In this document: in pieces, positions 9,539 to 43,759 of the stretch
Layout: every line of letters starts with the position of its first letter
How positions within the stretch are numbered: the first letter of the stretch is position 1
Translations under genes and position numbers: made by a program
Source: a virus
DNA length: 64,000 bases
Virus record (IMG/VR): IMGVR_UViG_3300045988_160053
Direction: 5' to 3' (one strand)
The notes under the pieces: model-generated
Told to the model about the DNA's origin: nothing
Seen by the model: the letters and a program-made list of their open reading frames with translations, nothing else
Databases searched by the model: none

Positions 9539-9544
9539 TTTAAA

Positions 9545-9576
9545 AGGGCTGTCTTTAAGACAGCTCTTTTAATATT
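9545..9576 (+). terminator. hairpin plus T-tract between tape measure and Dit (possible partial terminator or attenuator)
   Basis: AGGGCTGTC (9545-9553) pairs with GACAGCTCT (9559-9567) including one G-U pair. 5-nt loop, followed by TTTTAATATT. Confidence 0.4.
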
Positions 9577-9600
9577 AAAATATATGAAAGAGGTGAAAAA

Positions 9601-16631: not shown

Positions 16632-16667
16632 TACTATAGTCTGTTTTATTTAATTTTATTTGAGAAG

Positions 16668-17051
16668 GTGAAATATTTGACCAGTCGAGAATATGAACTT
16701 GAATTAAAGAAAATCAAAGCCAAAAATCGGCAGATTGAAATGAAACGAAATCTGAAAGCAGCAAAAGTTAGTAGATTTAACATTCCAAAGATTTCTACCA
16801 GTAAATTGATTCTTGTTGCAGTACTTCTACTCAATCTACAGATCATTTATTTCGTAGAAAAAGCGATCATGACATATGGTGATTTATCTGCTCTCTACGC
16901 TCTTATTGCTATCCCAGCGACACTTATCCCTACGGTGTGGGCTTATTTTAGTAAGGCAAAAGCTGAAAATTGTGCAGGCGGAATTACTTATGATTCTGCA
17001 ATGGAACAACTTAGACAGTCATCTTCAGAAAATGATGAAGCTGTCGGTTAG
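16668..17051 (+). CDS. membrane protein (two predicted TM segments)
   Basis: Hydrophobic stretches LILVAVLLLNLQIIYFV and LYALIAIPATLIPTVWAYF. Start is ambiguous: GTG 16668 abuts the GAGAAGG RBS, and the in-frame TTG at 16677 is better spaced. Confidence 0.5.
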   Translation: MKYLTSREYELELKKIKAKNRQIEMKRNLKAAKVSRFNIPKISTSKLILVAVLLLNLQIIYFVEKAIMTYGDLSALYALIAIPATLIPTVWAYFSKAKAENCAGGITYDSAMEQLRQSSSENDEAVG

Positions 17052-17060
17052 GAGGAAATT

Positions 17061-17459
17061 ATGAATATTAAACAGGGTATTCAGGACGTATTATATCTGA
17101 TCATTACTGGTGTTCTTCCACTTCTTATTACTTATGGAATCCTCTTCTTAAAAGTAAAGATTAAAGAACAGGAAAAGAACCTGGAGAACGATCAGCTCGT
17201 AAAATATATAGATGCTGCCACTGATGCTATTAGTAAAGCAGTGCTCGCAGTTAATCAGACCTATGTTGATTCATTAAAGAAACAGGGTAAATTTGATGAG
17301 GAAGCTGCTAAAACTGCTAAACAGATGGCTATTGATAAAGCTAAGGCTTTGATTACAGAAGATTCTAAAGCGGCTATCGAAACATTATATTCTGACTTTG
17401 AAGCATATCTAAATGATGCTATTGAAGAACTCGTCAGAGAAAATAAAGTTACATATTAA
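17061..17459 (+). CDS. LL-H-family-holin-like membrane protein
   Basis: Single N-terminal TM (VLYLIITGVLPLLITYGILFL) followed by an Ala/Lys-rich helical tail, an architecture and composition I associate with LL-H family holins. Strong RBS TAGGAGGAAATT. Not adjacent to the endolysin. Confidence 0.4.
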   Translation: MNIKQGIQDVLYLIITGVLPLLITYGILFLKVKIKEQEKNLENDQLVKYIDAATDAISKAVLAVNQTYVDSLKKQGKFDEEAAKTAKQMAIDKAKALITEDSKAAIETLYSDFEAYLNDAIEELVRENKVTY

Positions 17460-28633: not shown

Positions 28634-31528
28634 ATGAAAGAACAATTTCTTAATCTCACTGGATTAACAGAACTGGTTGGTTATTTGAAGACAAGTATAG
28701 CTAATCATAAAGAAATACTTCCATATGCTTCCAATAAGTTATTTCCGTCTGTTGGAGATATAAATACTATTTATATAAATACTGCTACGAATACTATTTA
28801 TCGTTGGGATAGCTCAAGCAAAACTTATATTACTCTAGCAAAAGCCGTAAAGTCTGTTGCTATTTCAGAAGCTACTGAAAACGGAAAAATCACACTCACT
28901 GTAGATGGTAATAAAACTACTGTTCCTATTCATGGATTAGGATCTGCTGCATATACAAATTCAAGTGCTTACTCTCCTGCCGGGCATACTCATACAAAAG
29001 CTCAGGTAGGGCTTGGCAATGTAGATAATACTGCCGATGCAAATAAGAGTGTAAAACATGCAACTACTGCTGATAGTGCAACTACTGCAGGAACAGCTAC
29101 AAATGTATCCGCTGGAGAAGGTACTGCTGATGCAGCTAGACATGTTTGGTTTTCTGACTCTACCACAGAGACAAAGCGAGTATACAGCGATAAGTTTAAA
29201 TATAATCCTGTTACTAATAATCTGACGGTAAATGTTACAGGAAATGCTGCGACTGCAAGTAGTGTCGCATGGGGTAACATTACAGAAAAACCTTCTACCT
29301 ATACTCCTTCTGCGCATAATCATAATGATTCAACTATTACTTCTCTCAACGCAAGTAAACTCTTTGGAACAATTGATATTGCAAGGCTTCCTCATGGAGC
29401 ATTAGAACGTCTGGTTATTGTTGAAGATGATACTGCACGTTTTAAACTTACTACTGCTAATATTCAGCTTGGTGATACCGTAAAAGTAACTAAGACTGAA
29501 AAAATGTATTATGTTGTTGATGAGAGCAAATTATCTTCTGAGGCTGGTTATTCAGTATATACTGCCGGAACTGCTACTTCTGTACCATGGTCTGGAGTTA
29601 CTGAAAAGCCTAGCAGCTATCCACCAGCATCTCATAATCATGATGAACGTTATTATACCGAGACTGAGATGAATAGTAAATTAGCTGAAAAAGCTACAAA
29701 AGTACATACGCATACTAAAAGTGAAGTTGGATTAGGCAACGTTGACAATACTGCTGATGCCACAAAAAGTGTTAAATATGCTATTTCTGCAGGTAGCGCA
29801 TCATCTGCCGCTGCTCTTACTTCTAATGCTGGATCATCAACTCAGCCAGTATATTTCTCAGGTGGTAAGCCAGTAGCTTGTTCATATACACTTGGTAAGT
29901 CAGTGCCTGCAGATGCATTATTTACCGATCATACTTATGGAAACATGAAGGGTGCTACTTCTTCTTCCGCCGGAAGTGCTGGTCTTGTTCCTGCACCTAA
30001 TATAGGAGAACAATTAAAATTTCTTCGTGCAGATGGTACATGGGTAATTCCTACAAATACGACATATTCTGTAGGTACATCAAGTTACTTAGGAATAACT
30101 AAGCTTTATACTGAAACTGGGTCGGCTACAGATGGTACCATGACTCAAAATGCTATTACTTCTGCTCTTAACGGGAAATCTCCTACCTCTCATACGCACA
30201 ATTATGCAGGAAGTTCTAGTTCTGGTGGTGCTGCAAACTCCGCAAATAAACTAGCAACTGCTAGAACCGTATCTGGTGGAACTGACATCACGCTAAGTTT
30301 TAACTATGATGGTAGTGGTAACTCCTCTGCAAATATCGGATTTTATAGTTCGTCTGCGAGTGTAGGCGACAAAAACAATTATCCATTCCATCGATTCGCA
30401 AAACTGGATACTATTGCTGCAAGCTATTCAGATAAATCAACCACATTCTTTATCTCACAGGATTATAGTGGTGGTGGCTTCGGTATTGTACGAATTGTAT
30501 TACGTACGAATAACAGCAGCTTAGCATCGACAGTTGAAGTAAAATGGCTGGTTCGTTGTGGCTTAAGTGCGGATAGCGTACAAGTCGGAATTTACAATGT
30601 TTTTGGAAAGACTTACGCAGATGCCTTCTTTAAAACAGGAGGATCGTATGCTGGAACTTGTTTCCGTACACTTGCAAGTGGTGCGCGTGGTGGTATTAGC
30701 AGAACTTGGGTGCTGGTCAATTCTTCAGAAGTAAGTGGAACCTCTGCAACAGATGCAAAAACATCTACCGAGTGTTATGCTACTATTGCAGCTGCTGGTA
30801 CCGCACTTCATAAACAAGCATATAGTAGTATCGTTTCTGGTACTGATAGCGGTACTGCATCTTATGCGAATAGTGCTGGCAGTGCAAATTCTGTTGCTTG
30901 GGGTAATGTTACAGGTAAGCCATCTACATTCGCACCATCATCTCATACTCATAACTATGCAGGATCCTCTTCTGCTGGCGGTGCTGCTACATCAGCAATT
31001 AAATTATCCACACCTAGAAAAATTGGTAACGCATCTTTTGATGGTACTGCTGATATTACCTTATCTCAGATGGGACTTAATGTTCCTGTTGAAATTACAA
31101 AAGCTAACTATCTTGCAAAAAAGAAAGCTGGAACTTTAAATGCAAATACCTATTACAATGTTATTGATGAATATGATTCTGCAAATGTTATTAACGACTC
31201 ATCTGTAACAACCAACAGTACATTTTCAAGTACTAAATCGGAAAAAACATATGCAAAGAAAAGTACACTTGTTAATACTACTCTCACGGCTAGTAAATGG
31301 ACTGGTTCCTCTGCTCCGTATACATATGTATTACCTGTATCTGGTGCGACTACTTCAAATATAGTAGAAATTAATTATGCTTCTAATGCATCATCTCAAG
31401 CAATAGAGGCATATCAGAACGCTATGTTAGCAGATGGAGGGCAGACTACAAATCAGATTACTATAAAAGCAACCGAGAAACCAACTGTAGATATTCCCAT
31501 TACTATTGTTATAAGAAATGATTTATAA
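28634..31528 (+). CDS. long tail fibre protein (964 aa) with Phage_fiber_2-like repeats and six HxH motifs
   Basis: Duplicated HTHTK[AS][QE]VGLGNVDNTADA[NT]KSVK. Three copies of W[GS]x[IV]T[EG]KPS..(P)..SH[NT]H. Two copies of SHTHNYAGSSS.GGAA.SA.KL.T.R. These motifs are typical of phage fibre repeats. Weak RBS. Confidence 0.75.
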   Translation: MKEQFLNLTGLTELVGYLKTSIANHKEILPYASNKLFPSVGDINTIYINTATNTIYRWDSSSKTYITLAKAVKSVAISEATENGKITLTVDGNKTTVPIHGLGSAAYTNSSAYSPAGHTHTKAQVGLGNVDNTADANKSVKHATTADSATTAGTATNVSAGEGTADAARHVWFSDSTTETKRVYSDKFKYNPVTNNLTVNVTGNAATASSVAWGNITEKPSTYTPSAHNHNDSTITSLNASKLFGTIDIARLPHGALERLVIVEDDTARFKLTTANIQLGDTVKVTKTEKMYYVVDESKLSSEAGYSVYTAGTATSVPWSGVTEKPSSYPPASHNHDERYYTETEMNSKLAEKATKVHTHTKSEVGLGNVDNTADATKSVKYAISAGSASSAAALTSNAGSSTQPVYFSGGKPVACSYTLGKSVPADALFTDHTYGNMKGATSSSAGSAGLVPAPNIGEQLKFLRADGTWVIPTNTTYSVGTSSYLGITKLYTETGSATDGTMTQNAITSALNGKSPTSHTHNYAGSSSSGGAANSANKLATARTVSGGTDITLSFNYDGSGNSSANIGFYSSSASVGDKNNYPFHRFAKLDTIAASYSDKSTTFFISQDYSGGGFGIVRIVLRTNNSSLASTVEVKWLVRCGLSADSVQVGIYNVFGKTYADAFFKTGGSYAGTCFRTLASGARGGISRTWVLVNSSEVSGTSATDAKTSTECYATIAAAGTALHKQAYSSIVSGTDSGTASYANSAGSANSVAWGNVTGKPSTFAPSSHTHNYAGSSSAGGAATSAIKLSTPRKIGNASFDGTADITLSQMGLNVPVEITKANYLAKKKAGTLNANTYYNVIDEYDSANVINDSSVTTNSTFSSTKSEKTYAKKSTLVNTTLTASKWTGSSAPYTYVLPVSGATTSNIVEINYASNASSQAIEAYQNAMLADGGQTTNQITIKATEKPTVDIPITIVIRNDL

Positions 31529-31542
31529 AAGGAGGCGATAAC

Positions 31543-32085
31543 ATGGCAATTTACAAAGGTGAACAATGTCTTGCTGGAGTTGGTAAGAATGCAACTATTA
31601 AAATTGGTACTGCTAAAACAGGTACTTCGGCTGCAGTAACCAATTCTGGTACAGATACAGATGCAATATTAAATTTTACACTGCCCAAAGGTGATCAGGG
31701 AGTTGGTATTTCAAGTGTTATCCCTCATTATCTTGCAAGTTCTAAATCGCAGGGAGTGACCAGATCAACTACTGGATGGGCGACTTCCGCTCAGGTTATG
31801 ACATCTACAAACAAATATTTGTGGTGCTATCATGAATTTGTTTTATCAAATAATAATCATCTGTATACAAATGCAACCGTTATAGGTGTTTATGGAGATA
31901 AAGGTGATCCGGGCACAACTGATTACAATGGATTACAGAATAAACCGGTCGTTAATGGAGCTGTAACTGCTTATCAGTCAGATATTATGAAATCTCAGTT
32001 AAGGAATGTGACATTCTCTACTGAAGAACCTAAAATAACTGATGGTAAACCTGGTGATATGTGGGTGGTGTATGGCGATGAGTAA
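31543..32085 (+). CDS. fibre adaptor-like protein (180 aa)
   Basis: RBS AAAGGAGG. Ends …KPGDMWVVYGDE. Its stop overlaps the start of the next gene. Confidence 0.6.
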   Translation: MAIYKGEQCLAGVGKNATIKIGTAKTGTSAAVTNSGTDTDAILNFTLPKGDQGVGISSVIPHYLASSKSQGVTRSTTGWATSAQVMTSTNKYLWCYHEFVLSNNNHLYTNATVIGVYGDKGDPGTTDYNGLQNKPVVNGAVTAYQSDIMKSQLRNVTFSTEEPKITDGKPGDMWVVYGDE

Positions 32086-34708
32086 TATTAAAACTGGTGA
32101 TATTTTAAACTTTGATTATACTGGTACTGTCCAAACTGTAACACTTCCTAAAGGTACATATAAGTTGGAGTGTTGGGGTGCTCAAGGAGGATACAGTTCT
32201 TCTAATTCAGGAATAGAGGTTGGTATGGGCGGAAAAGGTGGATACTCCGCTGGAACTATTACACTAAACCAAAAAACACTTATATATATTTATACTGGTG
32301 GAGTTGGTAGCATAAGTGGCAACGGTAAAGCAGATGGTGGATTTCCTAATGGTGGTTCATCTTGGGCTTCCAGCACAAGCGAAGGTGCTGGTGGTGGCGG
32401 TGGATCATCCGATATCCGTATTGGTACCGATTCATTGTATGCTCGTGTTATCGTAGCTGGAGGTGGCGGAGGTGGCGGTGAAGACAACGAAACTGGCGGA
32501 TATGGTGGCGGTGAAACTGGCGGAACTTCAGGTTCTGGAACACCTGGTAGTCAAACTGCTCCAAGTGGATATTTTGGAATCGGCGGTCATACTTCCTATG
32601 ATGGTGGAGGTGGTGGCGGTGGATGGTATGGTGCTGATCCAGCCGGTGGTCAAACAACTCCAGCTACCGGTAGCAGTGGAAGTGACACATCTGGCTCTCC
32701 TGGAGGATCTGGTTACGTTTATACTTCTGCTACAGCCTCTAATTACCCGTCAGGTTGTTTATTAAACTCTTCTTATTACTTATCTGCTGCTAAAACCATA
32801 GCAGGTAACACTTCTTTTACATCTCCCACAGGTTCATCTGAGACAGGGCACTCTGGGAACGGCTATTGTCGAATTACTGTTATTGAATGCAAGAATACGG
32901 CGCTATATACCAGAATAAACAATTCAATGAAAAAGGCTACTGCTTTTTATTTCAAATTAAATAATAACAAAATGTACGGCGTTGGATCTGCTAATTATAA
33001 TGGTTCTGTTATGAATTTTGATTATACTGGTTCGGTTCAAACTGTTACATTGGCTCCTGGTACATATAAACTTGAATGCTGGGGCGCTCAAGGTGGGAAT
33101 GGATCATCTAATGGTAATTCTAATATAAATGCAGTTGGTGGTCTTGGTGGATATAGTGTTGGCACCATTACATTAAGTAAAACACAAAAAGTATATATAT
33201 ATTCTGGTGGAAAAGGACAAACTAAATCAAATACCGGTAGCTATTCTACTGTTAATGGTGGATTTAACGGCGGTGGGTCAAATTATACTTGTGGTTCCGG
33301 AGGTTCTGGTGGCGGTGGATCGGATATAAGGATCGGAACTGATTCATTATATGCAAGAGTAATTGTTGCAGGCGGCGGTTCTGGAACAGGATGGACAATT
33401 AAAGGTGCCGCTGGCGGTGGAATATTAGGCTTATCAAACTATAATTCATCTTACAATAGTACTCAAACAGCAGGAGGAATAGCTTATACTTCAGCTTACA
33501 ATATAATGCCCACAGCTGGCACTTTTGGTATAGGTGGCAATGGTTCCGGTTCTTCAGAAGGCGGTTCTGGCGGTGGAGGCGGCTGGTATGGAGGTGGCGG
33601 AGCCGGATATACGGGCGGTTCTAGTGGTGGATCAGGTTATGTCTACACTTCTGTCACTGCTTCAAATTATCCAAATGGTTGTTTACTTAACTCTTCTTAT
33701 TATCTTTCTAATGCTCAAACTATTGCCGGAGATCAATCGTTCCCTGCTCCTTCTGGTTCTACAGAAACTGGTCATTCTGGTAATGGACATGTAAAAATCA
33801 CTAAATTATCAGATGTAATATATCTTACTCATGCTAAGAACAACATAATGGATTTTAATTATACAGGTTCAGTACAATCTAAAACTCTAAAACCAGGTAC
33901 GTATACAATAGAATGCTGGGGTGGCCAAGGAGGAACTTACAGTAGTTACATAGGCGGATACGGTGGTTATTCCAAGGGTACTATTACTCTTACTGAAGCA
34001 ACTACTGTTTATATATCTGTTGGTGGGGCTGGATCTTCCTCTTCTACTGCTGCAGGATTCAATGGTGGAGGAACTGGTATTTCTTCTGGTAGAGGTGGTG
34101 GAGGAGCTACAGATGTTCGTATAGGTCAAAATTCTCTATATTCAAGAGTTATCGTAGCCGGAGGTGGCGGCGGAGCTGGTGTAACAAGTGCCAATGCTAA
34201 TCCTTGTGGTTGTGGCGGTGGAGAATATGGTGGAGATGGATATTACAATGATACCACTGGTTCTTATACTATAGGTCAAAATAGATGTGGTGGTAGTGCC
34301 TCACAAACTGCAGGTGGCAAAACATGGAGCACGAGCACTCAGGCTACTTTTGGTCAAGGCGGAAATGCTTCAGGCTACTCTTGTGGTGGTGGCGGAGGCG
34401 GCTGGTATGGCGGTGGTGGAGCCTATGACAGTGATTCTGACTCTGATGGACGTTGGGGTGGAGGAGGCTCAGGATATGTTTATACCTCTTCTACAGCTAA
34501 AAATTACCCTAACGGATGTCTACTAAATTCTACTCATTATCTCACAAATGCTCAGACTATCGCAGGAAACACTTCTTTTACTTCTCCTACAGGATCAGCA
34601 GAAACTGGTCACACAGGCAGTGGATTCTGCAGAATTACAAATTTGAACCCAACACAATATGGATTATACGTAAAAACGAACTCTGGTTGGAAACACATAG
34701 ATTTATAA
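32078..34708 (+). CDS. glycine-rich (PF12810-like) three-module adhesin-like tail protein
   Basis: Three modules of about 270 aa start near 32101, 33009 and 33845. Each runs NF[DN]YTG.VQ..TL.PGTY.[LI]ECWG[AG]QGG … GG.GGYS.GTITL … GGG[GA].[ST]D[IV]RIG..SLY[AS]RVIVAGGGGG … GGGGGWYG … GGSGYVYTS … ETGH[ST]G[NS]G.[CV][RK]IT. Start trimmed to ATG 32078 (ATGAGTAA overlap with the upstream stop). ATG 32072 is also possible, and the track start 32042 is unlikely. Confidence 0.8.
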   Translation: MSNIKTGDILNFDYTGTVQTVTLPKGTYKLECWGAQGGYSSSNSGIEVGMGGKGGYSAGTITLNQKTLIYIYTGGVGSISGNGKADGGFPNGGSSWASSTSEGAGGGGGSSDIRIGTDSLYARVIVAGGGGGGGEDNETGGYGGGETGGTSGSGTPGSQTAPSGYFGIGGHTSYDGGGGGGGWYGADPAGGQTTPATGSSGSDTSGSPGGSGYVYTSATASNYPSGCLLNSSYYLSAAKTIAGNTSFTSPTGSSETGHSGNGYCRITVIECKNTALYTRINNSMKKATAFYFKLNNNKMYGVGSANYNGSVMNFDYTGSVQTVTLAPGTYKLECWGAQGGNGSSNGNSNINAVGGLGGYSVGTITLSKTQKVYIYSGGKGQTKSNTGSYSTVNGGFNGGGSNYTCGSGGSGGGGSDIRIGTDSLYARVIVAGGGSGTGWTIKGAAGGGILGLSNYNSSYNSTQTAGGIAYTSAYNIMPTAGTFGIGGNGSGSSEGGSGGGGGWYGGGGAGYTGGSSGGSGYVYTSVTASNYPNGCLLNSSYYLSNAQTIAGDQSFPAPSGSTETGHSGNGHVKITKLSDVIYLTHAKNNIMDFNYTGSVQSKTLKPGTYTIECWGGQGGTYSSYIGGYGGYSKGTITLTEATTVYISVGGAGSSSSTAAGFNGGGTGISSGRGGGGATDVRIGQNSLYSRVIVAGGGGGAGVTSANANPCGCGGGEYGGDGYYNDTTGSYTIGQNRCGGSASQTAGGKTWSTSTQATFGQGGNASGYSCGGGGGGWYGGGGAYDSDSDSDGRWGGGGSGYVYTSSTAKNYPNGCLLNSTHYLTNAQTIAGNTSFTSPTGSAETGHTGSGFCRITNLNPTQYGLYVKTNSGWKHIDL

Positions 34709-34723
34709 AAGGAGGGCTTAACT

Positions 34724-34999
34724 ATGCCGATTATATTTCACGGAACAGGTAGTGGCGGCTCTGCTAAAAAACTAAAAACCGCACGAACTATTAATGGTAC
34801 GAATTTTGATGGTACAGCTAATATTACTACTGCTAATTGGGGAACAACAAGAACCGTTACTGTAGGAAATACAAGTAAATCTGTAAATGGATCTGGAAAC
34901 GTAAGTTGGTCGTTAGCTGAAATAGGTATTCATCTTTCAACAACGGAACCTGCAGCTAGTGACGGAAAAAATGGAGATATTTGGATTACTTATGAATAA
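34724..34999 (+). CDS. mini fibre/adaptor protein (91 aa) with Phage_fiber_2-like repeat
   Basis: AKKLKTARTINGTNFDGTANIT matches the KL.T.R.I.G..FDG..NI fibre repeat. Ends KNGDIWITYE, like the 180-aa protein. RBS AAAGGAGGG. Confidence 0.6.
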   Translation: MPIIFHGTGSGGSAKKLKTARTINGTNFDGTANITTANWGTTRTVTVGNTSKSVNGSGNVSWSLAEIGIHLSTTEPAASDGKNGDIWITYE

Positions 35000-35023
35000 A
35001 AGACTGAAAGGAAGGTGAGGCTT

Positions 35024-35665
35024 ATGGCTTGTAGTAATGGATGTGGAACTTCTTGTTCTACTGACTGCACTCATTCATCATCTGGTGGATGTGGTGGTTC
35101 TTGTGGTGGTTCTTGCTCTACTAACTGTACTGGTGGATGTTCTGGATATTGTGATGGAACTTGTAAGGGAGGTTCAGGAAGTACTTGTTCTGACTGTACT
35201 GCCAAATGTGCTAATGACTGTACCGGAGCTTGTACAAATGCTTGTGTAACCGGATGCACTGGCTGTGGGAACAACTGTGATGGAGACTGTACAAGCGCCT
35301 GTGCTCAAAGGTGCTCTAATGATTGCAATGCTGCATGTACTGCTACTTGTGCTTATGATTGCGAACATACTTGCACTGCTTCTTGTGCCAACGACTGCAC
35401 CAGTTGTGGTGGATCTTGCTCAAGTAATTGCTCAGGAAATTGTGATTCCGGTTGTTATACTGGTTGTTATGGTTGTGATTCTACCTGTTCTGGTGGTTGT
35501 TCTGGCACTTGTAATACTACTTGCACTACCACTTGCGCCAATGACTGCACTGGCGGGTGCAAAGGAACCTGTACAGGTGGATGTGGTGGTTCTTGTGATA
35601 ATTCATGCGGCTTTTCTTGTGAAGCTTCATGTGATAACAATTGTACTGCTGTTTGTTCTGTATCT
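35024..35665 (+). repeat. coding 12-nt periodic Cys-X-X-X repeat tract (about 50 units)
   Basis: A TGT/TGC codon recurs every fourth codon (CSNGCGTSCSTDC…CDNNCTAVC). The units are degenerate at the DNA level. The tract creates spurious ORFs in other frames and on the opposite strand. Confidence 0.9.
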
Positions 35666-37465
35666 TCTGTGTATGGTGGAAACTCAGAGAAGAGTGTATT
35701 GAATTTTGCTTATACAGGTAAAGCTCAATCTGTAACCCTTGAGCCTGGAAAATATGTTCTTGAATGTTGGGGAGCACAGGGAGGTTATCGTTCTAATTCT
35801 AGTTATGGTGGAAAAGGTGGCTATTCTACAGGGACTTTAACATTGACTCAAAAAACTACTATATACATATATGTCGGTGGATCTGGAAATTCTGTTACAT
35901 CAGCATCAAATTCAATCTATCCCGGAGGTTTCAATGGTGGTGGATATAGATACAATTATAAAGGTGGTGGTGGCGCTACTGATATTCGTATTGGAAGTGC
36001 TTCTTTATATGCCCGTGTTATCGTTGCAGGTGGCGGTGGTTCTGATGGTAGTCCTAATTATAGTGGTGGGTATGCAGGTGGTGTATCTGGTACTAGGGGA
36101 AATTTTGGATGTGGTTCATATGGATATGGTGGATCTCAAACTGCTTCATATTCATCTTTAAGTGCTATTAATTCACAAGGCACCACAAATTCTTCTTCTA
36201 ACTGTGCTGCTGGTTTTGGTTTCGGTGGTTTTGGATGTTATTACGCTTCAGGTTACGGTGGAGCCGGTGGCGGAGGATGGTACGGTGGACAAGGTACTTA
36301 TCCTGATGGTTCTGGAGATGATGATGGCGGTGGCGGAGGTGGATCTGGTTACGTTTATACTTCCTCTTCTGCTTCTAACTATCCTCAAGGCTGTCTCCTA
36401 AATTCATCTTACTATCTTTCTGATGCTTCTAATTTATCTGGCAATGAATCTTTCAAATCTCCTTCTGGTGCTACAGAAACTGGTCATTCTGATAATGGCT
36501 ATTGTAGGATTACCTGTTATGTCAAAAAGAAAACTCTACATTGTAAAATGAACAATGAAATTAAAAAAGCAGCTCCAGTATTTATGAAAATGAACAATAA
36601 AATTTATGATGCTGGCGCTAATGCTGTAATGGATTTTGCTTATACAGGAACAGCTCAAGCTATATCACTTCCAAGAGGAAAATATATTATAGAATGCTGG
36701 GGCGCTCAAGGCGGTTCATATAGTAGTTATTATGGTGGTGCTGGAGGATATTCTGTCGGAACCATAACTCTAACTAAAAATTCTACGGATTTATATATTT
36801 ATGTTGGTGGACAACCAGAAGCTACAACTTCAACAGGTGAAACACCTGGTGGATTTAACGGAGGAGGAAAAGGTTGTTCAAGAACTTATAATTATAGTAG
36901 TTATGGACAAGGTGGCGGCGGTGCAACCGATGTTCGTATAGGAAAAAATGATCTTTATGCTAGAGTTATTGTCGCTGGTGGCGGCGGAGGTTCATCATCA
37001 GAAAATTCGCTTACAACAAAATATGGCGGTGGAACTACTGGTGGTTCTTCTGCTTCTGGATATGGAGCTACACAAACTGCTGCAGGTACAAATGGTTCGT
37101 TTGGTCAAGGTGGTTCTGCAACAACTTCTGGAACTAATTATAATTATGGTTCCGGCGGTGGTGGAGGTGGATGGTATGGTGGTGGTGCATGTTCTGATTA
37201 TAGTGACAGCACTAACTACCGAGGCTATAATGGCGGAGGTTCAGGATATGTTTACACTTCAGCTACTGCTGCTAATTATCCAAGTGGTAATTATGTAAAT
37301 TCTTCTTACTACCTTACCAATGCGCAAACTATAGCAGGAAATCAATCATTTAAATCACCTGATGGAACAAATGAAACAGGCCATACCGGAAATGGTTTCT
37401 GTCGAATCACCCGTAAATCAGGAAAAATATTTGTAAAACAAAACGGTTCATGGATCAAAGTATAA
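35024..37465 (+). CDS. CXXX-repeat / glycine-rich two-module tail-fibre-like protein (putative radical SAM maturase substrate)
   Basis: ATG 35024 is preferred over the track's GTG 35015 because the GGAAGGTGAGG RBS is well spaced. Residues 3 to about 207 carry 52 Cys, almost all at C-x-x-x spacing. Two PF12810-like modules follow, starting near 35695 and 36627 and ending ETGHSDNGYCRIT / ETGHTGNGFCRIT. Confidence 0.85.
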   Translation: MACSNGCGTSCSTDCTHSSSGGCGGSCGGSCSTNCTGGCSGYCDGTCKGGSGSTCSDCTAKCANDCTGACTNACVTGCTGCGNNCDGDCTSACAQRCSNDCNAACTATCAYDCEHTCTASCANDCTSCGGSCSSNCSGNCDSGCYTGCYGCDSTCSGGCSGTCNTTCTTTCANDCTGGCKGTCTGGCGGSCDNSCGFSCEASCDNNCTAVCSVSSVYGGNSEKSVLNFAYTGKAQSVTLEPGKYVLECWGAQGGYRSNSSYGGKGGYSTGTLTLTQKTTIYIYVGGSGNSVTSASNSIYPGGFNGGGYRYNYKGGGGATDIRIGSASLYARVIVAGGGGSDGSPNYSGGYAGGVSGTRGNFGCGSYGYGGSQTASYSSLSAINSQGTTNSSSNCAAGFGFGGFGCYYASGYGGAGGGGWYGGQGTYPDGSGDDDGGGGGGSGYVYTSSSASNYPQGCLLNSSYYLSDASNLSGNESFKSPSGATETGHSDNGYCRITCYVKKKTLHCKMNNEIKKAAPVFMKMNNKIYDAGANAVMDFAYTGTAQAISLPRGKYIIECWGAQGGSYSSYYGGAGGYSVGTITLTKNSTDLYIYVGGQPEATTSTGETPGGFNGGGKGCSRTYNYSSYGQGGGGATDVRIGKNDLYARVIVAGGGGGSSSENSLTTKYGGGTTGGSSASGYGATQTAAGTNGSFGQGGSATTSGTNYNYGSGGGGGGWYGGGACSDYSDSTNYRGYNGGGSGYVYTSATAANYPSGNYVNSSYYLTNAQTIAGNQSFKSPDGTNETGHTGNGFCRITRKSGKIFVKQNGSWIKV

Positions 37466-37503
37466 CACTTTGGTCCATATTTAAATTACGAGGAGGAATT
37501 GTT

Positions 37504-37902
37504 ATGAAACTTATTTTTAAAGACGGACAAGAATTAGTTATTACTCGTGCTAACGATACATATTCATATGAAGGATATAAAGATGGGTTAGGAAATGATA
37601 TGAACAAAAATATTGTAGCTACTATTTCTATCTTCAATTCTGATAAATCTTTAAACACTATTAAGGATATGATTACTGATGACAATAGAACAGGTTTTAA
37701 AATTATTTATGGGAATACCCAGAAAGATTATACTGGAATGAAAATTGAAAGTATTTCAGAAGAAATCTCCAATGAAAGAAGTGTTATTAATATCTCATTA
37801 GCTACAGATAAAACCATAGCTCCTACTGAGACCACTGGAACAACAACAGAAAAAACTAAAGAAGAAACTAAAGAAAAAACGGAAACAGCTTCTGATAAAT
37901 AA
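37504..37902 (+). CDS. hypothetical protein (132 aa) with Thr/Glu/Lys-rich tail
   Basis: Trimmed to ATG 37504, 5 nt after the GAGGAGGAA RBS; the track start 37450 overlaps the previous gene. No motif. Confidence 0.6.
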   Translation: MKLIFKDGQELVITRANDTYSYEGYKDGLGNDMNKNIVATISIFNSDKSLNTIKDMITDDNRTGFKIIYGNTQKDYTGMKIESISEEISNERSVINISLATDKTIAPTETTGTTTEKTKEETKEKTETASDK

Positions 37903-37927
37903 TTAAGAATGAAAGGAATATAAGGAT

Positions 37928-38266
37928 ATGAGAAAAATAATCGTAAAGGTTGATAAAGAAAAAGCTACAGAGCTTGAAAGAGTTAATTTTGAATTAAACT
38001 TCGTAAAAGACATTGTACAGAGAGTTATTGAATCACATCCAAGCGATTTAGAACTCATCAATGGAGATACTCTTATGTCTTACAATAAACGTGGTGCAGA
38101 ATTACAGAGAAAGTATGCTGCTCTTGCAAATGAGATGGAAAAGGAATACATCCCAGAATACCTCGAAGGTCATCAGTATAGTTGGATTATTCCAAATAAT
38201 TCTGATGAAATGACTATTACTATTAAATGTAATTGTGAGATTCCAGAATTAGAGGGAATAGCATGA
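37928..38266 (+). CDS. small accessory protein translationally coupled to the radical SAM maturase (possible CXXX-repeat modification system partner)
   Basis: 112 aa with a GAAAGGAATATAAGGAT RBS. Its stop overlaps the maturase start (ATGA at 38263-38266). The function is inferred from context only. Confidence 0.5.
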   Translation: MRKIIVKVDKEKATELERVNFELNFVKDIVQRVIESHPSDLELINGDTLMSYNKRGAELQRKYAALANEMEKEYIPEYLEGHQYSWIIPNNSDEMTITIKCNCEIPELEGIA

Positions 38267-39594
38267 AAAGAACAGAACAATATTCGGACCAGATAGCTAG
38301 ACTTTATCCATCTAAGAAGGTAAAAACCGATGACGGACAAAGAATATTAACACAGAGTATCACTTTTCAAGTAACTGATGATTGCAACCTTGCGTGTCTA
38401 TATTGTTACCAAGGACACAAAGGAAAAAATCGAATGTCGTTTGAAACAGCTAAGAAATTCTTTGATTTAGTTGTATCAGGTGAAAAAGGTTTTAAATCTT
38501 ATATCAATCCAGAGAAATCTCCTGGATTGGTTGTAGATTTCATTGGAGGAGAACCCTTTCTTGAGATAGAGCTTATAGATCAAATCTGTACTTATATTAT
38601 GGATAAACTCATAGAGTTGGATCATCCTTGGGCCATGAAAACTATGTTCTCTATTTGTTCAAATGGTGTTTTATACAGGGACGAAAAAGTACAAGCATTT
38701 CTTCGTAAATGGGCCAATAGATTATCTTTCTCAGTTACTATTGATGGGAATAAAGAATTACATGATTCCTGCCGAGTTTTTCCAGATGGTGGTCCAAGTT
38801 ATGACATAGCTGTCGATGCTGCGTCAGATTGGATGAAACGTGGAAATCATATGGGAAGCAAGATCACAATTGCTCCGGGCAATATCAGCTTTCTATACGA
38901 TGCTATTAAGCATATGGTCGATCTTGGATATGATGAAATCAATGCCAATTGTGTATATGAAAAGGGTTGGACACCTGTACATGCAACTGTTCTTTATGAT
39001 CAAATGAAACGTATATCTGATTATTTCTTGGAACAGAATTTTGATTTTGAACGTGATTTCTTCTGTTCCCTTTATAATGAAGACTTCTTTCAGCCTAAAG
39101 ATCCTGATGATTTACAAAGTTGGTGTGGAGGCGTTGGTAATTCAATGATTGCTTGCGATCCTCAAGGTCGCATATTTCCATGTATCAGATATATGGAATC
39201 TTCTCTTAATGGAGAGCAAGAACCGTACTCTATTGGTGATGTAGATAATGGTATAGGATGCACAGAATGTTATAAATGCAGAATTAATTGTATGGCAAAA
39301 ATAGATAGAAGGACACAGAGTACAGATGAATGTTTCTATTGTCCTATAGCTGCAGGATGTTCTAATTGTTCTGGTTATGATTATCAAGTGAATGGTACTC
39401 CTGACTCAAAAGCTACTTATATATGTGTTATGCATAAAGCTCGTGCTCTTGGGAATCTGTATTTCTGGAATAAATATTATAGAAAAAATAATATGAGTAA
39501 GCGAATGAAAAACTATGTGCCAGATGAATGGGCGCTTGAGATTATTTCTGAATCAGAACTTAATATGTTGAAAGAACTTGAAAGAGAGGATTAA
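38263..39594 (+). CDS. radical SAM / SPASM-domain peptide maturase
   Basis: CNLACLYC (CX3CX2C, nt about 38383-38406) within FQVTDDCNLACLYCYQ. GGEPFLE motif. C-terminal Cys cluster WCGGVGNSMIACDPQGRIFPC … CTECYKCRINC … CFYCPIAAGCSNC, typical of SPASM auxiliary Fe-S domains. Confidence 0.85.
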   Translation: MKRTEQYSDQIARLYPSKKVKTDDGQRILTQSITFQVTDDCNLACLYCYQGHKGKNRMSFETAKKFFDLVVSGEKGFKSYINPEKSPGLVVDFIGGEPFLEIELIDQICTYIMDKLIELDHPWAMKTMFSICSNGVLYRDEKVQAFLRKWANRLSFSVTIDGNKELHDSCRVFPDGGPSYDIAVDAASDWMKRGNHMGSKITIAPGNISFLYDAIKHMVDLGYDEINANCVYEKGWTPVHATVLYDQMKRISDYFLEQNFDFERDFFCSLYNEDFFQPKDPDDLQSWCGGVGNSMIACDPQGRIFPCIRYMESSLNGEQEPYSIGDVDNGIGCTECYKCRINCMAKIDRRTQSTDECFYCPIAAGCSNCSGYDYQVNGTPDSKATYICVMHKARALGNLYFWNKYYRKNNMSKRMKNYVPDEWALEIISESELNMLKELERED

Positions 39595-39612
39595 AAGCCT
39601 CTCTTTTTTATT
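39583..39612 (+). terminator. intrinsic terminator closing the fibre/maturase operon
   Basis: AGAGAGG (39583-39589) pairs with CCTCTCT (39598-39604). 8-nt loop, then TTTTTTATT. Overlaps the maturase stop codon. Confidence 0.6.
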
Positions 39613-39634
39613 GACTAAAAGGAGGCTTGATATT

Positions 39635-41305
39635 ATGGCAGAAATTAAAGGAATTGATGTTTCCAGATGGAATGGAAACATCGACTGGAAAACTGTTGCT
39701 AGTTATGGAATGGGCTTCGCTATCCTAAGAATTACAGAAAAAGGAAATATTGTTGATAGCACATTCGAACCTAATTATAAAGGCTGTATTGAGAATAAGA
39801 TTCCTGTTGGAGTCTATAAATACAGCTATGCTACTACTATTGCTCAGATTGAAGATGAAGCAAATGTAGTTATTAAAACATTGAATAAAAGAAAACTGGA
39901 TTATCCAGTGTTTCTTGATATAGAGGATAAATGTCAGGAGAATTTATCTGACAGTTTAATGATGAAAATGATCGAAGCTTTTAGAGCTATTATTGTCAAA
40001 GCTGGATATAAATTTGGTATTTACTGTGGTTATTCTTGGTATCAGAACCAGTTACCAAAAGGTGCTAAAAAGTACGATTGCTGGGTTGCTCGATATCCTA
40101 ATAATGATACCGGTGAATTACAGGAAAGATTAAGAGTTCCTGCTTCTACTGGTGTTATTGGATGGCAATATTCTAGTAAGGCAACCATTCCTGGTATTCC
40201 AACAAAAACCGATCGAAGTGTATTCTATAAAGACTATTCTAAATCTTCTACTACTTCTACAAACTCTCTCAAACCAACAACTACACAAGGAAGTGATACT
40301 ATGAATAAAGATAAAGCTATTGATGCTCTTATTGCTTGCGCTGAAAATGAGGTTGGATATTTAGAGAAGAAATCTAATTCTCAGCTTGATGATAAAACTG
40401 CAAATGCAGGTTACAATAACTACACTAAATACTGGAGAGACGTATATCCTCAGTATCAGGCACAGGCTTGGTGTGCAGCGTTTGTGAGTTGGTGCATGAT
40501 GAAAACATTCGGTCTTGATGTAGCTAAAAAACTCCTTAAACATTGGCCTTATGTATACTGTCCTACTCTTGGAAATCTCTTCACAAAGTATGCAAATCCA
40601 CAGCGAGGAGACATTGTGATCTTCTATCGTAACGGTACTTTTGCACATACAGGAATTGTCACAAAAGTTGAAGGTGATAAGTTTTATACTATTGAAGGGA
40701 ATACTTCAGCTGGCTCTACTGTTGTTCCAAATGGTGGAGGAGTTTTTGCTAAATCTTATTACAATTCTAATCTTCCAGGCACTAAATTCTGTCGTCCAGA
40801 CTATTCTATTGTCACATCTATTTTAACATCTACTGCACCTGTACAGCCATCTTATACTGCATGGGTAGGTTCTTGTACAGCTAATGGAACAGATGTATTC
40901 TCAGACGCTACAGGAGCTTCTAAGCTAAGTACATATCCTAAACTTAATGCAGGTAATCTTGTGGATATCATCGGTGAATCTGGTACAAGATATCAGGTTC
41001 GTATCGCTGCAAAATATATAGGGTATGTAGAAAAATCTAACATTAAAAATCCTAATACTCCTGCTGCAACAACTACAAAAAAATATCCATTTGTAGGAAA
41101 AGTAACTGCAAGTAAATTGAATGTTCGCAAAAAACCCGGTACTGAACATCCATTACTTCCAGAGTATCCGATGTTAAATAAAGACAATCTTGTTAATGTC
41201 CTCGGAGTTACAAAAGATACTAAAGGTAACAGATGGTACAAAGTATCAATTACTAAAAATGAATATGTTGGCTATGTATCAGCCAAATATATTACTAAGG
41301 CATAA
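39635..41305 (+). CDS. endolysin: GH25 muramidase + CHAP peptidase + two SH3b domains
   Basis: Trimmed to ATG 39635 (RBS AAAGGAGG).
- GH25: GIDVSRWNGNIDW and FLDIED, about 39635-40240.
- Ser/Thr linker.
- CHAP: AWCAAFVSW Cys and FAHTGIV His, about 40300-40810.
- Two SH3b-like repeats at about 40850-41040 and 41085-41300. Confidence 0.85.
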   Translation: MAEIKGIDVSRWNGNIDWKTVASYGMGFAILRITEKGNIVDSTFEPNYKGCIENKIPVGVYKYSYATTIAQIEDEANVVIKTLNKRKLDYPVFLDIEDKCQENLSDSLMMKMIEAFRAIIVKAGYKFGIYCGYSWYQNQLPKGAKKYDCWVARYPNNDTGELQERLRVPASTGVIGWQYSSKATIPGIPTKTDRSVFYKDYSKSSTTSTNSLKPTTTQGSDTMNKDKAIDALIACAENEVGYLEKKSNSQLDDKTANAGYNNYTKYWRDVYPQYQAQAWCAAFVSWCMMKTFGLDVAKKLLKHWPYVYCPTLGNLFTKYANPQRGDIVIFYRNGTFAHTGIVTKVEGDKFYTIEGNTSAGSTVVPNGGGVFAKSYYNSNLPGTKFCRPDYSIVTSILTSTAPVQPSYTAWVGSCTANGTDVFSDATGASKLSTYPKLNAGNLVDIIGESGTRYQVRIAAKYIGYVEKSNIKNPNTPAATTTKKYPFVGKVTASKLNVRKKPGTEHPLLPEYPMLNKDNLVNVLGVTKDTKGNRWYKVSITKNEYVGYVSAKYITKA

Positions 41306-41316
41306 GGAGGTACATC

Positions 41317-41865
41317 ATGGGTATTGAACAGATACAGAAAATCCATGAGTTTGGTGAGATCAATGTGATCATATCTTTACTTCTTTGTGCAATGCTTGTT
41401 ATAGCTTTAAAAGCTGGATGGGAGAAACTTCTTGATGTTCTTGGTCTCGAAACAAAAGCATCTCTACAGAAGAAAGCTTTAGAGAAGAAGTTGTCTGATA
41501 TGGAACAGAAAATTGCTGATTTTGAGCAGTCTCAACATAATTATCATGACCAGTCCATTAATATCAGAGATGATCTGAGAACAAATCAAAATACTCTGAG
41601 CACACAGCTTACTGATCTTACAACTTTGATGCAGAACTTTATAACTAATCAAGATGAGTGTACTGTAGCATCATTTAGAAGTTCTCTCTGGAGAATGCAT
41701 AGAGACTTTATGGCACAAGGGTACATCACACCGGATGGATTAAAGACATTCCTAGAGATGGGAAAGCTTTATGAAAAGGCTGGTGGAAATGATATTTATC
41801 ATGAGAAATTACTTCCAGATATTGAATCTCTGGAAGTCAGATATACAAAAGACAATGTACTATAA
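41317..41865 (+). CDS. single-pass membrane coiled-coil protein downstream of the endolysin (possible lysis accessory or holin-like)
   Basis: TM segment INVIISLLLCAMLVIALKAGW followed by coiled coil. RBS TAAGGAGGT. The functional call rests on position only. Confidence 0.5.
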   Translation: MGIEQIQKIHEFGEINVIISLLLCAMLVIALKAGWEKLLDVLGLETKASLQKKALEKKLSDMEQKIADFEQSQHNYHDQSINIRDDLRTNQNTLSTQLTDLTTLMQNFITNQDECTVASFRSSLWRMHRDFMAQGYITPDGLKTFLEMGKLYEKAGGNDIYHEKLLPDIESLEVRYTKDNVL

Positions 41866-41870
41866 TTTAT

Positions 41871-41907
41871 GGGTAGTCAAGCATTATACTTGGCTACCCA
41901 TTTTTTT
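41871..41907. terminator. terminator hairpin between convergent late operon and minus-strand gene
   Basis: GGGTAGTCAAG (41871-41881) pairs with CTTGGCTACCC (41889-41899) including one G-U pair. 7-nt loop, followed by ATTTTTTT on the + strand. Confidence 0.6.
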
Positions 41908-42175
41908 ACTTTGATTCTTTATCAAGCATATTCCGAACGTCTTCTACAGAAAGTCCTTTTTCTCGAAGTAATTTGGCAAGATCTTTCATAGACTGTTCTT
42001 CTTTTACGGCTGCTTCTTTCTTCTCTGCTGCAACAAAATCTTTAGAAAGATTCTTTTTCTGCAATTTAAGAGTCTTAAGCTCGTCAGTAAGCTTAGTAAT
42101 TTGTTCTTCTGTTGATGCAATCTGCGCTTTAACTTCTTCAGTTGTTAATTCCACTACTCGTCTTTTACCTCTCAT
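41906..42175 (-). CDS. small coiled-coil protein (89 aa)
   Basis: Track ORF with an AGGAGGTAC RBS. Charged heptad sequence. It would lie at a prophage end after integration at the proposed attP. Confidence 0.6.
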   Translation of the reverse strand: MRGKRRVVELTTEEVKAQIASTEEQITKLTDELKTLKLQKKNLSKDFVAAEKKEAAVKEEQSMKDLAKLLREKGLSVEDVRNMLDKESK

Positions 42176-42550: not shown

Positions 42551-43759
42551 TTAGCTGATTTTTTGGAATGCTCTGCACGTATTTATATCGTTCATCGTAT
42601 TTTCTAACAACTTAATGTCACTCATTTTTTTATCACTTAAAACTTCTGTATAGATATCCATGGTCATCTGAATATTTGTATGTCCAAGATATGATTGTAC
42701 TGTTTTTGGTGGGATTCCTGCCTCAAAACAGCGTGTGGCAAATGTGTGTCTAAATGTATGCGCACTAAATTTTGGCATCAGAGGCTGATTTTGAGATGCT
42801 CTAATTTTATTAACATTATTTCTTACTGTACGTATCGAACTACCAAGTACTTCATCCATCAAGGGTCTATTATTTCTTGTCACGAAAAGGAGTTTGCCAA
42901 GAACGTCAGAGTCATAATCAATCGGTGGCAATGTATTGAGCTGCTGTACTTGATCTTCAATTGCTTTTCTACATATGGAATTCATCGGTACGGTTCTTAT
43001 ACTGGATTTAGTTTTTGGTATGCTGATTTTGTATCCTAAAAAATCATCTTTTGAAGATTTTCTAAAATAAGTTAAAGTTTTAGTAACATTTATAGTATTA
43101 TTTTCAAAATCAATATCATCTAAAGTAAGCGCTCTCAATTCTCCTGAGCGAAGTCCTGTATTAACTGCGACAACATATAGATTATAATAGAAGCATCCTT
43201 TCGCCATAAAGAAGAAATCTCTTTGATCCTCACGGGATAAGGTAACGATTTTTCTTCTGTCAGTTCCGATTATTTTTATGCCTTTTGCCGGGTTTTTAGT
43301 ACATAAATCATTATCCATAGCATAAGAGAATAAATCGCACAAAACTGTACGTATATTATTGACTGTACTTTTATGTAACCTTTTACCCAGTCCGTTAAGT
43401 AAATCTGTTACCATCAATTTAGTAATTGATGACAATGGCAATCTGCCTAGCACAGGTTTTATATAGCAATGGTATGTACGTATATATATTCTAATTGTAC
43501 TTGGCTTCAGAACAGGTTCTTTATATACCCTCATCCACTTTTCATACCACTGATCCAAAGTCATATTGGAGTCTACTACATTATTTTTACTGTAATTATC
43601 TACAACTTCACTCATTAATGCATTTTTAACTTCTTTTAAAGTTATCCCGTATACACATCTACGCTTCCCGAACCTATCTGTAAATCGGGCTTGATATCTA
43701 CCGTCCTTTCTCTGTGAAATGCCCTTTCCGAGTTCTTTACCTTTTAAATCTTTTCCCAT
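42551..43759 (-). CDS. int: tyrosine recombinase (phage integrase)
   Basis: C-terminal catalytic region …LRSGELRAL… / …AHTFRHTFATRCFEAGIPPKTVQSYLGHTNIQMTMDIYTEV (R…HxxR…Y pattern). N-terminal SAM-like domain. RBS GAAAGGATG. Confidence 0.9.
   Translation of the reverse strand: MGKDLKGKELGKGISQRKDGRYQARFTDRFGKRRCVYGITLKEVKNALMSEVVDNYSKNNVVDSNMTLDQWYEKWMRVYKEPVLKPSTIRIYIRTYHCYIKPVLGRLPLSSITKLMVTDLLNGLGKRLHKSTVNNIRTVLCDLFSYAMDNDLCTKNPAKGIKIIGTDRRKIVTLSREDQRDFFFMAKGCFYYNLYVVAVNTGLRSGELRALTLDDIDFENNTINVTKTLTYFRKSSKDDFLGYKISIPKTKSSIRTVPMNSICRKAIEDQVQQLNTLPPIDYDSDVLGKLLFVTRNNRPLMDEVLGSSIRTVRNNVNKIRASQNQPLMPKFSAHTFRHTFATRCFEAGIPPKTVQSYLGHTNIQMTMDIYTEVLSDKKMSDIKLLENTMNDINTCRAFQKIS

Follow-up and report, generated by a model that had tools for sequence, protein, structure and literature searches.

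A radical SAM/SPASM enzyme cassette with a presumed Cys-X-X-X-repeat target in the tail module of a gut phage lineage

The DNA analysed here, a viral stretch of 64,000 nucleotides (nt) held in IMG/VR as IMGVR_UViG_3300045988_160053 and hereafter called the window, carries at positions 35024-39612 a compact 4.6-kb unit. It comprises a gene for a Cys-rich protein of 813 amino acids (aa), the presumed substrate, two small helper genes and a gene for a radical S-adenosylmethionine (SAM) enzyme with a SPASM domain (Table 1). The gene coordinates, the intergenic gaps of 38 and 25 nt and the start/stop overlap given in an initial annotation of this DNA were reproduced exactly by the open reading frame (ORF) map. 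The first gene has a ribosome-binding site (GGAAGGTGAGG) 5′ of its ATG, the 112-aa helper and the enzyme are translationally coupled via the ATGA overlap, and both gaps are too small for any further ORF. The unit ends, as previously proposed, with an intrinsic terminator before the endolysin gene, evident as a 9-bp hairpin (AAAGAGAGG / CCTCTCTTT) followed by TTTATT, with the stop codon of the enzyme inside it. The best explanation is a cassette of four genes in a late operon, belonging to a temperate phage of siphovirus-like type, with an enzyme that may modify the Cys-rich part of a tail protein.

Table 1. Features of the cassette and of its surroundings in the window
Feature	Position	Strand	Basis and remarks
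Target protein gene, 813 aa	35024-37465	+	ORF map; CXXX-repeat domain, then two glycine-rich domains
CXXX-repeat domain, presumed enzyme substrate	35024-35668 (residues 1-215)	+	Cys spacing
First glycine-rich domain	35729-36517 (residues about 236-498)	+	Best PF12810 stretch, profile positions 2-242 of 243
Second glycine-rich domain	36620-37414 (residues about 533-797; boundaries approximate)	+	Second PF12810 stretch; alignment
132-aa accessory protein gene	37504-37902	+	38-nt gap after 813-aa gene
112-aa helper gene	37928-38266	+	25-nt gap after 132-aa gene
443-aa radical SAM/SPASM enzyme gene	38263-39594	+	Start overlaps 112-aa stop by 4 nt (ATGA)
Intrinsic-terminator-like hairpin, end of unit	39581-39612	+	Inverted-repeat search and sequence reading
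Paralogous 876/888-aa protein, three glycine-rich domains, no CXXX domain	32042-34708	+	PF12810 E 5e-138, 3 stretches
91-aa ORF, tail-fibre repeat similarity	34724-34999	+	PHROG tail-fibre families 21722 (E 3e-12) and 26292 (E 7e-12)
Endolysin, GH25 + CHAP + SH3	39635-41305	+	phrog_291 and related; precomputed Pfam labels
Integrase	42551-43759	-	phrog_1, E 1.8e-76; directly after lysis cassette

The N-terminal domain of the 813-aa protein is built of the Cys-X-X-X (CXXX) repeat that had been noted initially. Residues 3-211 contain 52 Cys, and the 51 spacings between them comprise 45 of 4, four of 3 and two of 8; 45 spacings of 4 were reached in none of 10,000 shuffles of the domain. The domain has 24% Cys and small residues. 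The repeat runs from the very start of the protein (MACSNGCGTSC), with no leader ahead of it. Several units read C-A-N-D-C or C-S-N-D-C, and the position i+4 after a Cys is the next Cys in 45 of the 51 units. phrog_6085 covers the Cys part, and the precomputed Pfam label PF27846 (tSAM_targ_Cxxx_rpt), marked faint, is attached to the protein. A recent tandem duplication of DNA as the origin of the repeat was ruled out, only few 2-copy 12-nt stretches being present.

Conservation of the domain is centred on its Cys residues. Among 23 protein variants of the 215-residue domain, none of the 52 Cys columns varies, as compared to 20 of the 163 other columns (Fisher p=0.005), and six of the Cys codons show synonymous TGT/TGC variation. 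The frame and all Cys are kept in every one of 35 distinct variants of the domain, and length variants (-12, +11 and -164 residues) keep the repeat register. The diverged domain of locus L037 can be aligned at 51 of the 52 Cys, with the other residues 38% identical. As judged from these variants, the Cys residues and the repeat register are under purifying selection. The same pattern extends across all loci described below: in 117 distinct tracts, nearly all Cys spacings are 4 (78%) or 3 (21%), and the residues in between are S/T/G-rich with N, D and A.

The 443-aa enzyme matches TIGR04115 over the whole model (positions 1-359 of 359) with 520 bits against a cutoff of 350 (E 3.9e-156). This model is the 'radical SAM peptide maturase, CXXX-repeat target family' named in the initial annotation. 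The next-best models are those of the Cys-dependent thioether maturases PapB (166.5 bits), SCIFF maturase (99) and QhpD (95.6), and then CcpM (94); the anaerobic sulfatase maturase reaches only 41.5. The enzyme stays under the cutoffs of PapB NF047865 (340), SCIFF TIGR03974 (425), QhpD TIGR03906 (453) and sulfatase maturase TIGR03942 (349). A best score as sulfatase maturase, together with a lack of CXXX ORFs next to the homologues, had been considered at the outset; the scores of 41.5 and 520 bits and the CXXX ORFs found beside the homologues speak for the contrary. The enzyme is also matched by phrog_1802 (E 1e-69). The radical SAM motif (C41-x3-C45-x2-C48) and the C-terminal SPASM cluster, described earlier as CX3CX2C and a group of Cys residues, are both present; the three Cys of the motif and the seven of the cluster (C288, C307, C357, C360, C366, C369 and C388) are invariant in 16 homologues of 61-100% identity. 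Among solved structures, CteB (5WGG, E 4e-19) ranks first in sequence comparison, with an alignment that covers its residues 91-423. Since the alignment begins only at CteB residue 91, the enzyme has no fused N-terminal recognition element for ribosomally synthesized and post-translationally modified peptides (RiPPs), the RiPP recognition element (RRE).

Both accessory proteins are linked to the enzyme across its relatives. A family of the 112-aa helper adjoins the enzyme in 123 of the 131 loci surveyed, nearly always directly upstream, and carries two invariant Cys (C101 and C103). The AlphaFold2 model of the helper has a predicted local distance difference test score (pLDDT) of 90 and combines a strand with a long helical hairpin and a beta-hairpin. 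The 132-aa protein has a conserved N-terminal part of ~100 aa and a T/E/K-rich tail; its family, collected by jackhmmer, occurs in 79 of the 131 loci and is always part of the cassette, where it precedes the helper or immediately follows the enzyme. Neither protein has a Pfam, PHROG or NCBIfam match (NCBIfam at E<=10), and five accessory proteins of loci L050, L121 and L129 gave no NCBIfam match at E<=0.01. None of the ORFs tested matched the second family model named initially, the accessory 'CXXX repeat peptide modification system protein', and the helpers are thereby ruled out as members of that curated family.

The linkage of enzyme and repeat was examined in 131 loci, of which 80 are viral contigs (from 191 IMG/VR contigs found) and 51 are loci in GTDB representative genomes. 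A CXXX ORF lies beside the enzyme, on the same strand, in 73 of the 80 viral loci, the other 7 being cut short upstream, so that it is present in 73 of 73 loci with sufficient flank; the corresponding figure is 46 of 51 for the genomic loci (38-68% enzyme identity). The loci fall in phage tail, baseplate and lysis modules. The neighbourhood expected in the initial annotation is thus found in both sets. The targets, with CXXX or CXX repeats, measure 170-920 aa, mostly about 170-500, and no surveyed locus has a short-peptide target. The earlier claim of a large, non-peptide substrate therefore holds for the 813-aa target; it does not hold as a peculiarity of the window phage, since, as far as the surveyed sequences go, a large target is the rule for the whole family, and the fusion to glycine-rich domains (GRDs) is what is specific to this lineage.

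The form of the target changes with the distance from the window enzyme. IMG/VR relatives of 81-100% enzyme identity (contigs up to 177 kb) have the CXXX-GRD fusion wherever the flank suffices, and the fusion ORF of 813-832 aa was found in about 35 independent IMG/VR contigs. Relatives of 67-70% identity lie on myovirus-like contigs of 30-66 kb and have two separate targets: one of ~190 aa, in which a non-Cys N-domain precedes a CXXX tail of 62 aa, and one of 215-255 aa with CXXX throughout, the start of which (MACSKGCGTSC) resembles that of the window protein. In the genomic loci the typical target has a conserved N-domain of ~110 aa (…IKxKVKAEMxRRxGYGSL…EHGQKTIDLLL…SSSCRGACTGLC…) followed by 70-350 repeat residues, and a few targets have the extra domain at the C-terminus. 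No homologue of this N-domain was found in the window by tblastn, and it has no PHROG match.

In the clade of 67-70% identity, the all-CXXX ORF often has no ATG, GTG or TTG start and lies in frame directly after the TAA or TAG stop of the ORF for the N-domain and CXXX tail (L050, 8636-9311; L041, 8670-9311). This arrangement points to readthrough of the stop codon or to a non-canonical start. In L072 (8856-9653), two stops, a ribosome-binding site and an ATG stand between the two ORFs. A variant cassette (L129, 9900-14770; also L118 and L125) consists of a helix-turn-helix/sigma-like ORF, the enzyme (TIGR04115, 417 bits), two different helpers of ~100 aa and a CXXX protein; L125 has the enzyme and helpers and no CXXX tract. 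The target of L129 has 920 aa, with a CXXX tract of 350 aa, two PG_binding_1-like repeats and a hydrophobic C-terminus.

The C-terminal ~600 residues of the 813-aa protein are covered by two stretches of PF12810 (ALK/LTK-type glycine-rich; E 2.8e-97). Alignment with the 888-aa paralogue encoded upstream shows that the CXXX domain sits where the first GRD stands in the paralogue. Versions of the GRD protein in other sequences (P0182, P0212, P0220, P0240 and P0270) include three GRDs, a CXXX domain replacing the first GRD, and swapped second GRDs; that of Blautia wexlerae (P0270, 1063 aa) has an extra N-terminal domain of ~190 aa. Taken with the window genes at 32042-37465, these versions suggest frequent domain shuffling among the fibre genes. 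A 180-aa ORF of the window (31543-32085) was ruled out as a split-off anchor domain corresponding to the P0270 N-terminus, as no similarity was found. G+C content rises to 0.42-0.43 at 32001-36000, as compared to about 0.35 elsewhere, with a strong positive GC skew; since the rise coincides with the Gly- and Cys-rich genes, it is read as an effect of codon content and not as evidence of foreign origin.

The surroundings of the cassette are those of a tail module. Upstream in the window lie Dit, a 2029-aa tail fibre/Tal-like protein and tail-fibre-like ORFs of 964, 356, 180 and 91 aa; the order of Dit, Tal-like protein, tail-fibre-like ORFs, 3xGRD protein, CXXX-GRD protein and endolysin places the cassette within the tail block. 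In 18 bacterial loci, the 120 flanking ORFs belong mainly to baseplate wedge, Baseplate_J, YQBQ, Mu Gp48, BppU_N, tape measure, tail fibre, Mtd_N and endolysin families, with Mtd_N present in 2 of these loci. The L050 cassette has Baseplate_J/tail protein genes on one side and, on the other, a tail-fibre gene followed by a diversity-generating retroelement that has a variable receptor-binding target. The GenBank faecal phage contig MT835573 (34% enzyme identity) has the same layout, the cassette standing between tail proteins and collagen-like fibre genes. On the basis of the flanking genes in the window, L050, the 18 bacterial loci and MT835573, the cassette is, by gene context, a component of tail-fibre modules and not merely cargo of prophage ends. 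The absence of leader, protease and exporter genes noted initially was borne out, none being found in the window, while the 25 commonest Pfam families of the 18 loci include neither ABC exporters nor C39 proteases.

The phage is considered temperate because of its integrase, and it also exists as an integrated prophage, as bacterial genes directly follow the lysis cassette in metagenome contigs of 200-232 kb from ENA/JGI with an identical enzyme (L156-L158). For the enzyme as well as for the GRD protein, the closest relatives in genomes come from Blautia, which makes a member of the gut Lachnospiraceae, such as Blautia, the probable host. In the assembly collection, 11,776 blocks are indexed with the exact enzyme sequence, and the 90%-identity cluster of the 813-aa protein has 3204 member sequences; the lineage is very common in human-gut metagenomes. 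Megablast of 30000-42000 against GenBank phages gave a 5% match, within the endolysin gene, with no cultured relative, and no cultured phage that carries the cassette was found. The genomic loci belong to Lachnospiraceae, Oscillospiraceae, Christensenella, Eubacterium, Treponemataceae and Erysipelotrichaceae/Mollicutes, with one Methanobrevibacter metagenome-assembled genome (MAG), all of which are known as strict anaerobes. This distribution of hosts fits an O2-sensitive enzyme that would substitute for disulfides.

These observations can be combined into a mechanism. The enzyme, with the coupled 112-aa helper and probably the 132-aa protein, would modify the ~52 Cys of the CXXX domain in the anoxic, reducing cytoplasm of a strictly anaerobic host. 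The likeliest chemistry would be serial intramolecular thioether cross-links (Cys-S to carbon), as formed by the closest characterised relatives, PapB, CteB and QhpD. Stapled covalently in this way, the domain would become a stalk or anchor that resists reduction and proteases and bears on the tail the two glycine-rich modules, which presumably bind receptors. Related phages would use this enzyme set on stand-alone CXXX proteins, the genes of which lie among those for baseplate and tail fibres. For the cassette and this mechanism as a whole, we see an about even chance of being correct. In its more general form, by which a large and widespread group of phages of strict anaerobes would use a dedicated enzyme set for installing dozens of thioether staples in CXXX tail proteins, as RiPP chemistry on the protein scale and a reduction-proof replacement for disulfides, with tail assembly as the function of the family, the proposal is slightly more doubtful and falls a little short of an even chance. 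The data suggest, and do not prove, that phages staple a virion protein covalently by radical chemistry of the peptide-antibiotic style; the action of the enzyme on the CXXX domain, the thioether nature of the products and the presence of the protein in the virion are each inferred steps.

Several results weigh against this mechanism. The CXXX domain scores below the cutoffs of the NCBIfam repeat models, with 20.2 bits for TIGR04117 (cutoff 50) and 14.5 bits for TIGR04114 (cutoff 20); the CXXX periodicity as such is unambiguous. No fixed or conserved acceptor residue is evident among x1-x3 in the window domain or the 117 tracts, and for this reason the type of cross-link is not predictable. 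AlphaFold2 modelling of residues 1-500 with an 18-sequence alignment gave a mean pLDDT of 34, with 24-31 for the CXXX part, and no confident fold. The PHROGs matching the GRD part (1589, 5811 and 7388) are categorised as function unknown, and tblastn of this part against 50,697 GenBank phage records gave no match, possibly owing to low-complexity masking. The 813-aa protein has no match among PDB sequences, and no homology to an experimentally characterised fibre or receptor-binding protein was found in PHROGs, PDB or GenBank phages. As the GRD families have no function assigned and no GenBank phage was matched, the label 'tail fibre' is a positional one, resting on the place of the gene and its tail-fibre-like neighbours. 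The helper was ruled out as a PqqD-like RRE, since Foldseek against PDB returned only generic helical-hairpin matches (E >= 0.7). From its model, the helper is not a recognisable RRE, and the recognition of substrate would therefore differ from that in classical RiPP systems. The conserved start MACSxGCGTSC may be considered a candidate recognition element.

Comparison with known systems places the cassette closest to the CXXX-repeat system of TIGR04115, TIGR04114-PF27846 and TIGR04117, the last being the Syntrophobotulus-type target model. The enzyme scores above the family cutoff, Cys recurs in the target at every fourth residue, and the target gene adjoins that of the enzyme. However, that system is named for a 'peptide' maturase, whereas the target here is a domain of an 813-aa tail-module protein, the domain falls short of the repeat-model cutoffs, and phage tail modules are the setting of the entire clade surveyed. 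To our knowledge, these families are annotation models without biochemistry, and no description of the biochemistry of the CXXX-repeat system or of a phage connection was found in the literature searched. Nor was any account of RiPP-style chemistry in a phage tail found there, in agreement with the initial annotation. Three elements are new, namely a substrate of protein scale, the joining of that substrate to a tail-fibre-like glycine-rich protein and the phage tail-module function of the surveyed clade.

Among characterised enzymes, the model of PapB is the closest, and PapB is likewise a SPASM radical SAM enzyme acting serially on tandem Cys repeats. Its product, freyrasin, is a ranthipeptide with Cys-X3-Asp thioethers; the precursor PapA is short and leader-containing, with six repeats and an Asp acceptor at i+4. 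In the window substrate, by contrast, the residue at i+4 is the next Cys, there are ~50 repeats and no leader, with a large protein as the product. CteB, the SCIFF maturase, shares the radical SAM and SPASM core and forms thioethers on a Cys-rich substrate, but it has an N-terminal RRE (about residues 1-90), which the window enzyme lacks, having instead a separate 112-aa helper of another predicted fold. QhpD installs Cys thioether cross-links in QhpC, the gamma subunit of quinohemoprotein amine dehydrogenase, and thus provides a precedent for SPASM cross-links in a protein that is kept in a larger assembly and not exported as a peptide. QhpC differs in having ~100 aa, three cross-links and a leader, whereas the window case is phage-encoded, with ~50 Cys and a context of structural genes. 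As compared to the classical RiPP pathway, the window system has no leader, protease, exporter or RRE, and the targets of its family measure 170-920 aa. By analogy, it would work like ranthipeptide/sactipeptide and QhpD-type thioether maturation, yet outside the PapB, SCIFF and QhpD families.

The proposed purpose, covalent stabilisation of an extracellular protein structure assembled in the cytoplasm, is shared with the isopeptide 'chainmail' of the HK97 capsid and the isopeptide bonds of Gram-positive pilins. Those bonds are autocatalytic and join Lys to Asn/Asp, whereas the window case would need a dedicated radical SAM set and the bonds would be C-S. Glycine-rich polyglycine-II folds serve as receptor-binding tips in phages, as in the T4-like gp38 adhesins, and the likeness of the window GRDs to them is by analogy only. 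No characterised phage protein with PF12810 was found in PHROGs, the literature or GenBank phages.

Among other explanations, the one that survives best, although still unlikely, is that the cassette is non-structural cargo and that its modified CXXX protein acts as an effector (bacteriocin-like, adhesive or a decoy, for example), set free by lysis or in the course of lysogeny. The GRDs of this lineage would then do no more than direct the effector to its target, as the receptor-binding part does in a colicin or tailocin. The lysis genes adjoin the cassette at the prophage end in the window and in several prophages, a typical site where non-structural cargo also gathers and a position which tells against a structural role; relatives of the enzyme make secreted peptides, and the target of L129, with its peptidoglycan-binding domains and C-terminal membrane segment, has no tail domain. 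Against these points, the cassettes of L050 and MT835573 lie between baseplate and downstream tail-fibre or receptor-binding genes and not at a prophage end, no exporter, signal peptide or protease is associated with the window cassette or appears in the top families of the 18 loci, and the fusion partner of the CXXX domain is a paralogue of the adjoining 3xGRD protein in a series of tail-fibre genes.

Less probable still is that the CXXX domain is a metallothionein-like metal or iron-sulfur scaffold, or that it is modified otherwise, by formylglycine formation, epimerisation or methylation. A composition of 24% Cys with small residues does resemble that of metal-binding proteins, SPASM enzymes include the Cys-oxidising anaerobic sulfatase maturase, and the lack of a conserved acceptor residue would suit such a role. 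However, the closest models are by far those of thioether-forming enzymes, the sulfatase maturase scoring in bits more than 10-fold under TIGR04115 and 4-fold under PapB. The strict spacing of 3 or 4 and the register-keeping indels suit the geometry of small rings or a ladder better than cluster binding, and obligate linkage to a dedicated radical SAM enzyme is unexpected for a plain metal binder.

That the true substrate lies elsewhere, as an unannotated small peptide or a host protein, with the CXXX adjacency coincidental or historical, is very improbable. The link between enzyme and substrate does rest on adjacency in the sequence, and the helpers have no assigned function; even so, the two stay adjacent in over 120 loci that span 34-100% enzyme identity, even where the order of the genes has changed, the gaps of the cassette leave no space for another ORF, and the curated family is itself defined by a CXXX target. 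An assembly or annotation artefact or a pseudogene as the source of the CXXX-GRD fusion, for which just the general risk of repetitive sequence speaks, is hardly credible in view of the recurrence of the 813-832-aa ORF in the independent IMG/VR contigs and the 200-232-kb ENA/JGI contigs, the size of its protein cluster and the intact frame and Cys of all 35 variants.

If the stapled-tail mechanism is true, radical SAM/SPASM cross-linking would be extended from short secreted peptides to structural proteins of 200-500 residues, and virions would have a new kind of post-translational modification, the first case of radical cross-links being put into a structural protein of the virion by an enzyme. 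An uncharacterised, curated family of 'peptide maturases' would be reassigned to phage tail assembly and away from natural-product pathways. The leaderless substrate and the non-RRE helpers bear on the recognition of substrates by SPASM enzymes, and an enzyme-stapled poly-CXXX rod, being genetically encoded, could serve as a scaffold resistant to proteases and reduction. The hypothesis is testable, as the phage is common in the gut, the unit is compact and co-expressible and the mass-spectrometric predictions are simple.

A number of minor features were recorded in the window and the related loci. Within the 813-aa gene, a strong sigma-70-like promoter match (GTGACA-17-TATAAT, 11/12) lies at 37203-37231, in the 3′ end, and a 12-bp hairpin at 37450-37478 overlaps the stop codon; together, these could uncouple or attenuate the expression of the accessory and enzyme genes relative to that of the structural gene. 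The tail module (1130-26331) contains outsized ORFs of 2802 aa (no PHROG match), 2029 aa (the tail-fibre/Tal-like protein) and 2407 aa, the first of which is perhaps the tape measure. A holin-like ORF (17061-17459; phrog_13712, E 5e-29) lies amid the tail genes, far from the endolysin. At the prophage junction of L156-L158, the bacterial genes encode a Na+/H+ antiporter and a molybdo-flavoprotein dehydrogenase; as they start at the point where the window has its integrase, the attachment site should fall near 42.2-42.5 kb. The retroelement of L050 (13635-16751) comprises a 398-aa variable-target-like protein (13635-14831), Avd (14886-15317), a template-like ORF (15323-15541) and a reverse transcriptase (15723-16751). 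The Methanobrevibacter MAG contig (L117, 7.6 kb) has an enzyme homologue of 45% identity and a 277-aa CXXX protein, and could be an archaeal provirus or a binning error.

Many homologues of the enzyme are interrupted by inteins (L029, L030 and L035, about 8780-11200; P0003, P0007, P0026 and P0098), some of which have homing-endonuclease domains. Two insertion sites are seen: the first lies within the CX3CX2C motif (CNLAC | intein | ..YC), and the second at the first SPASM Cys (NW | C…intein… | CGG).

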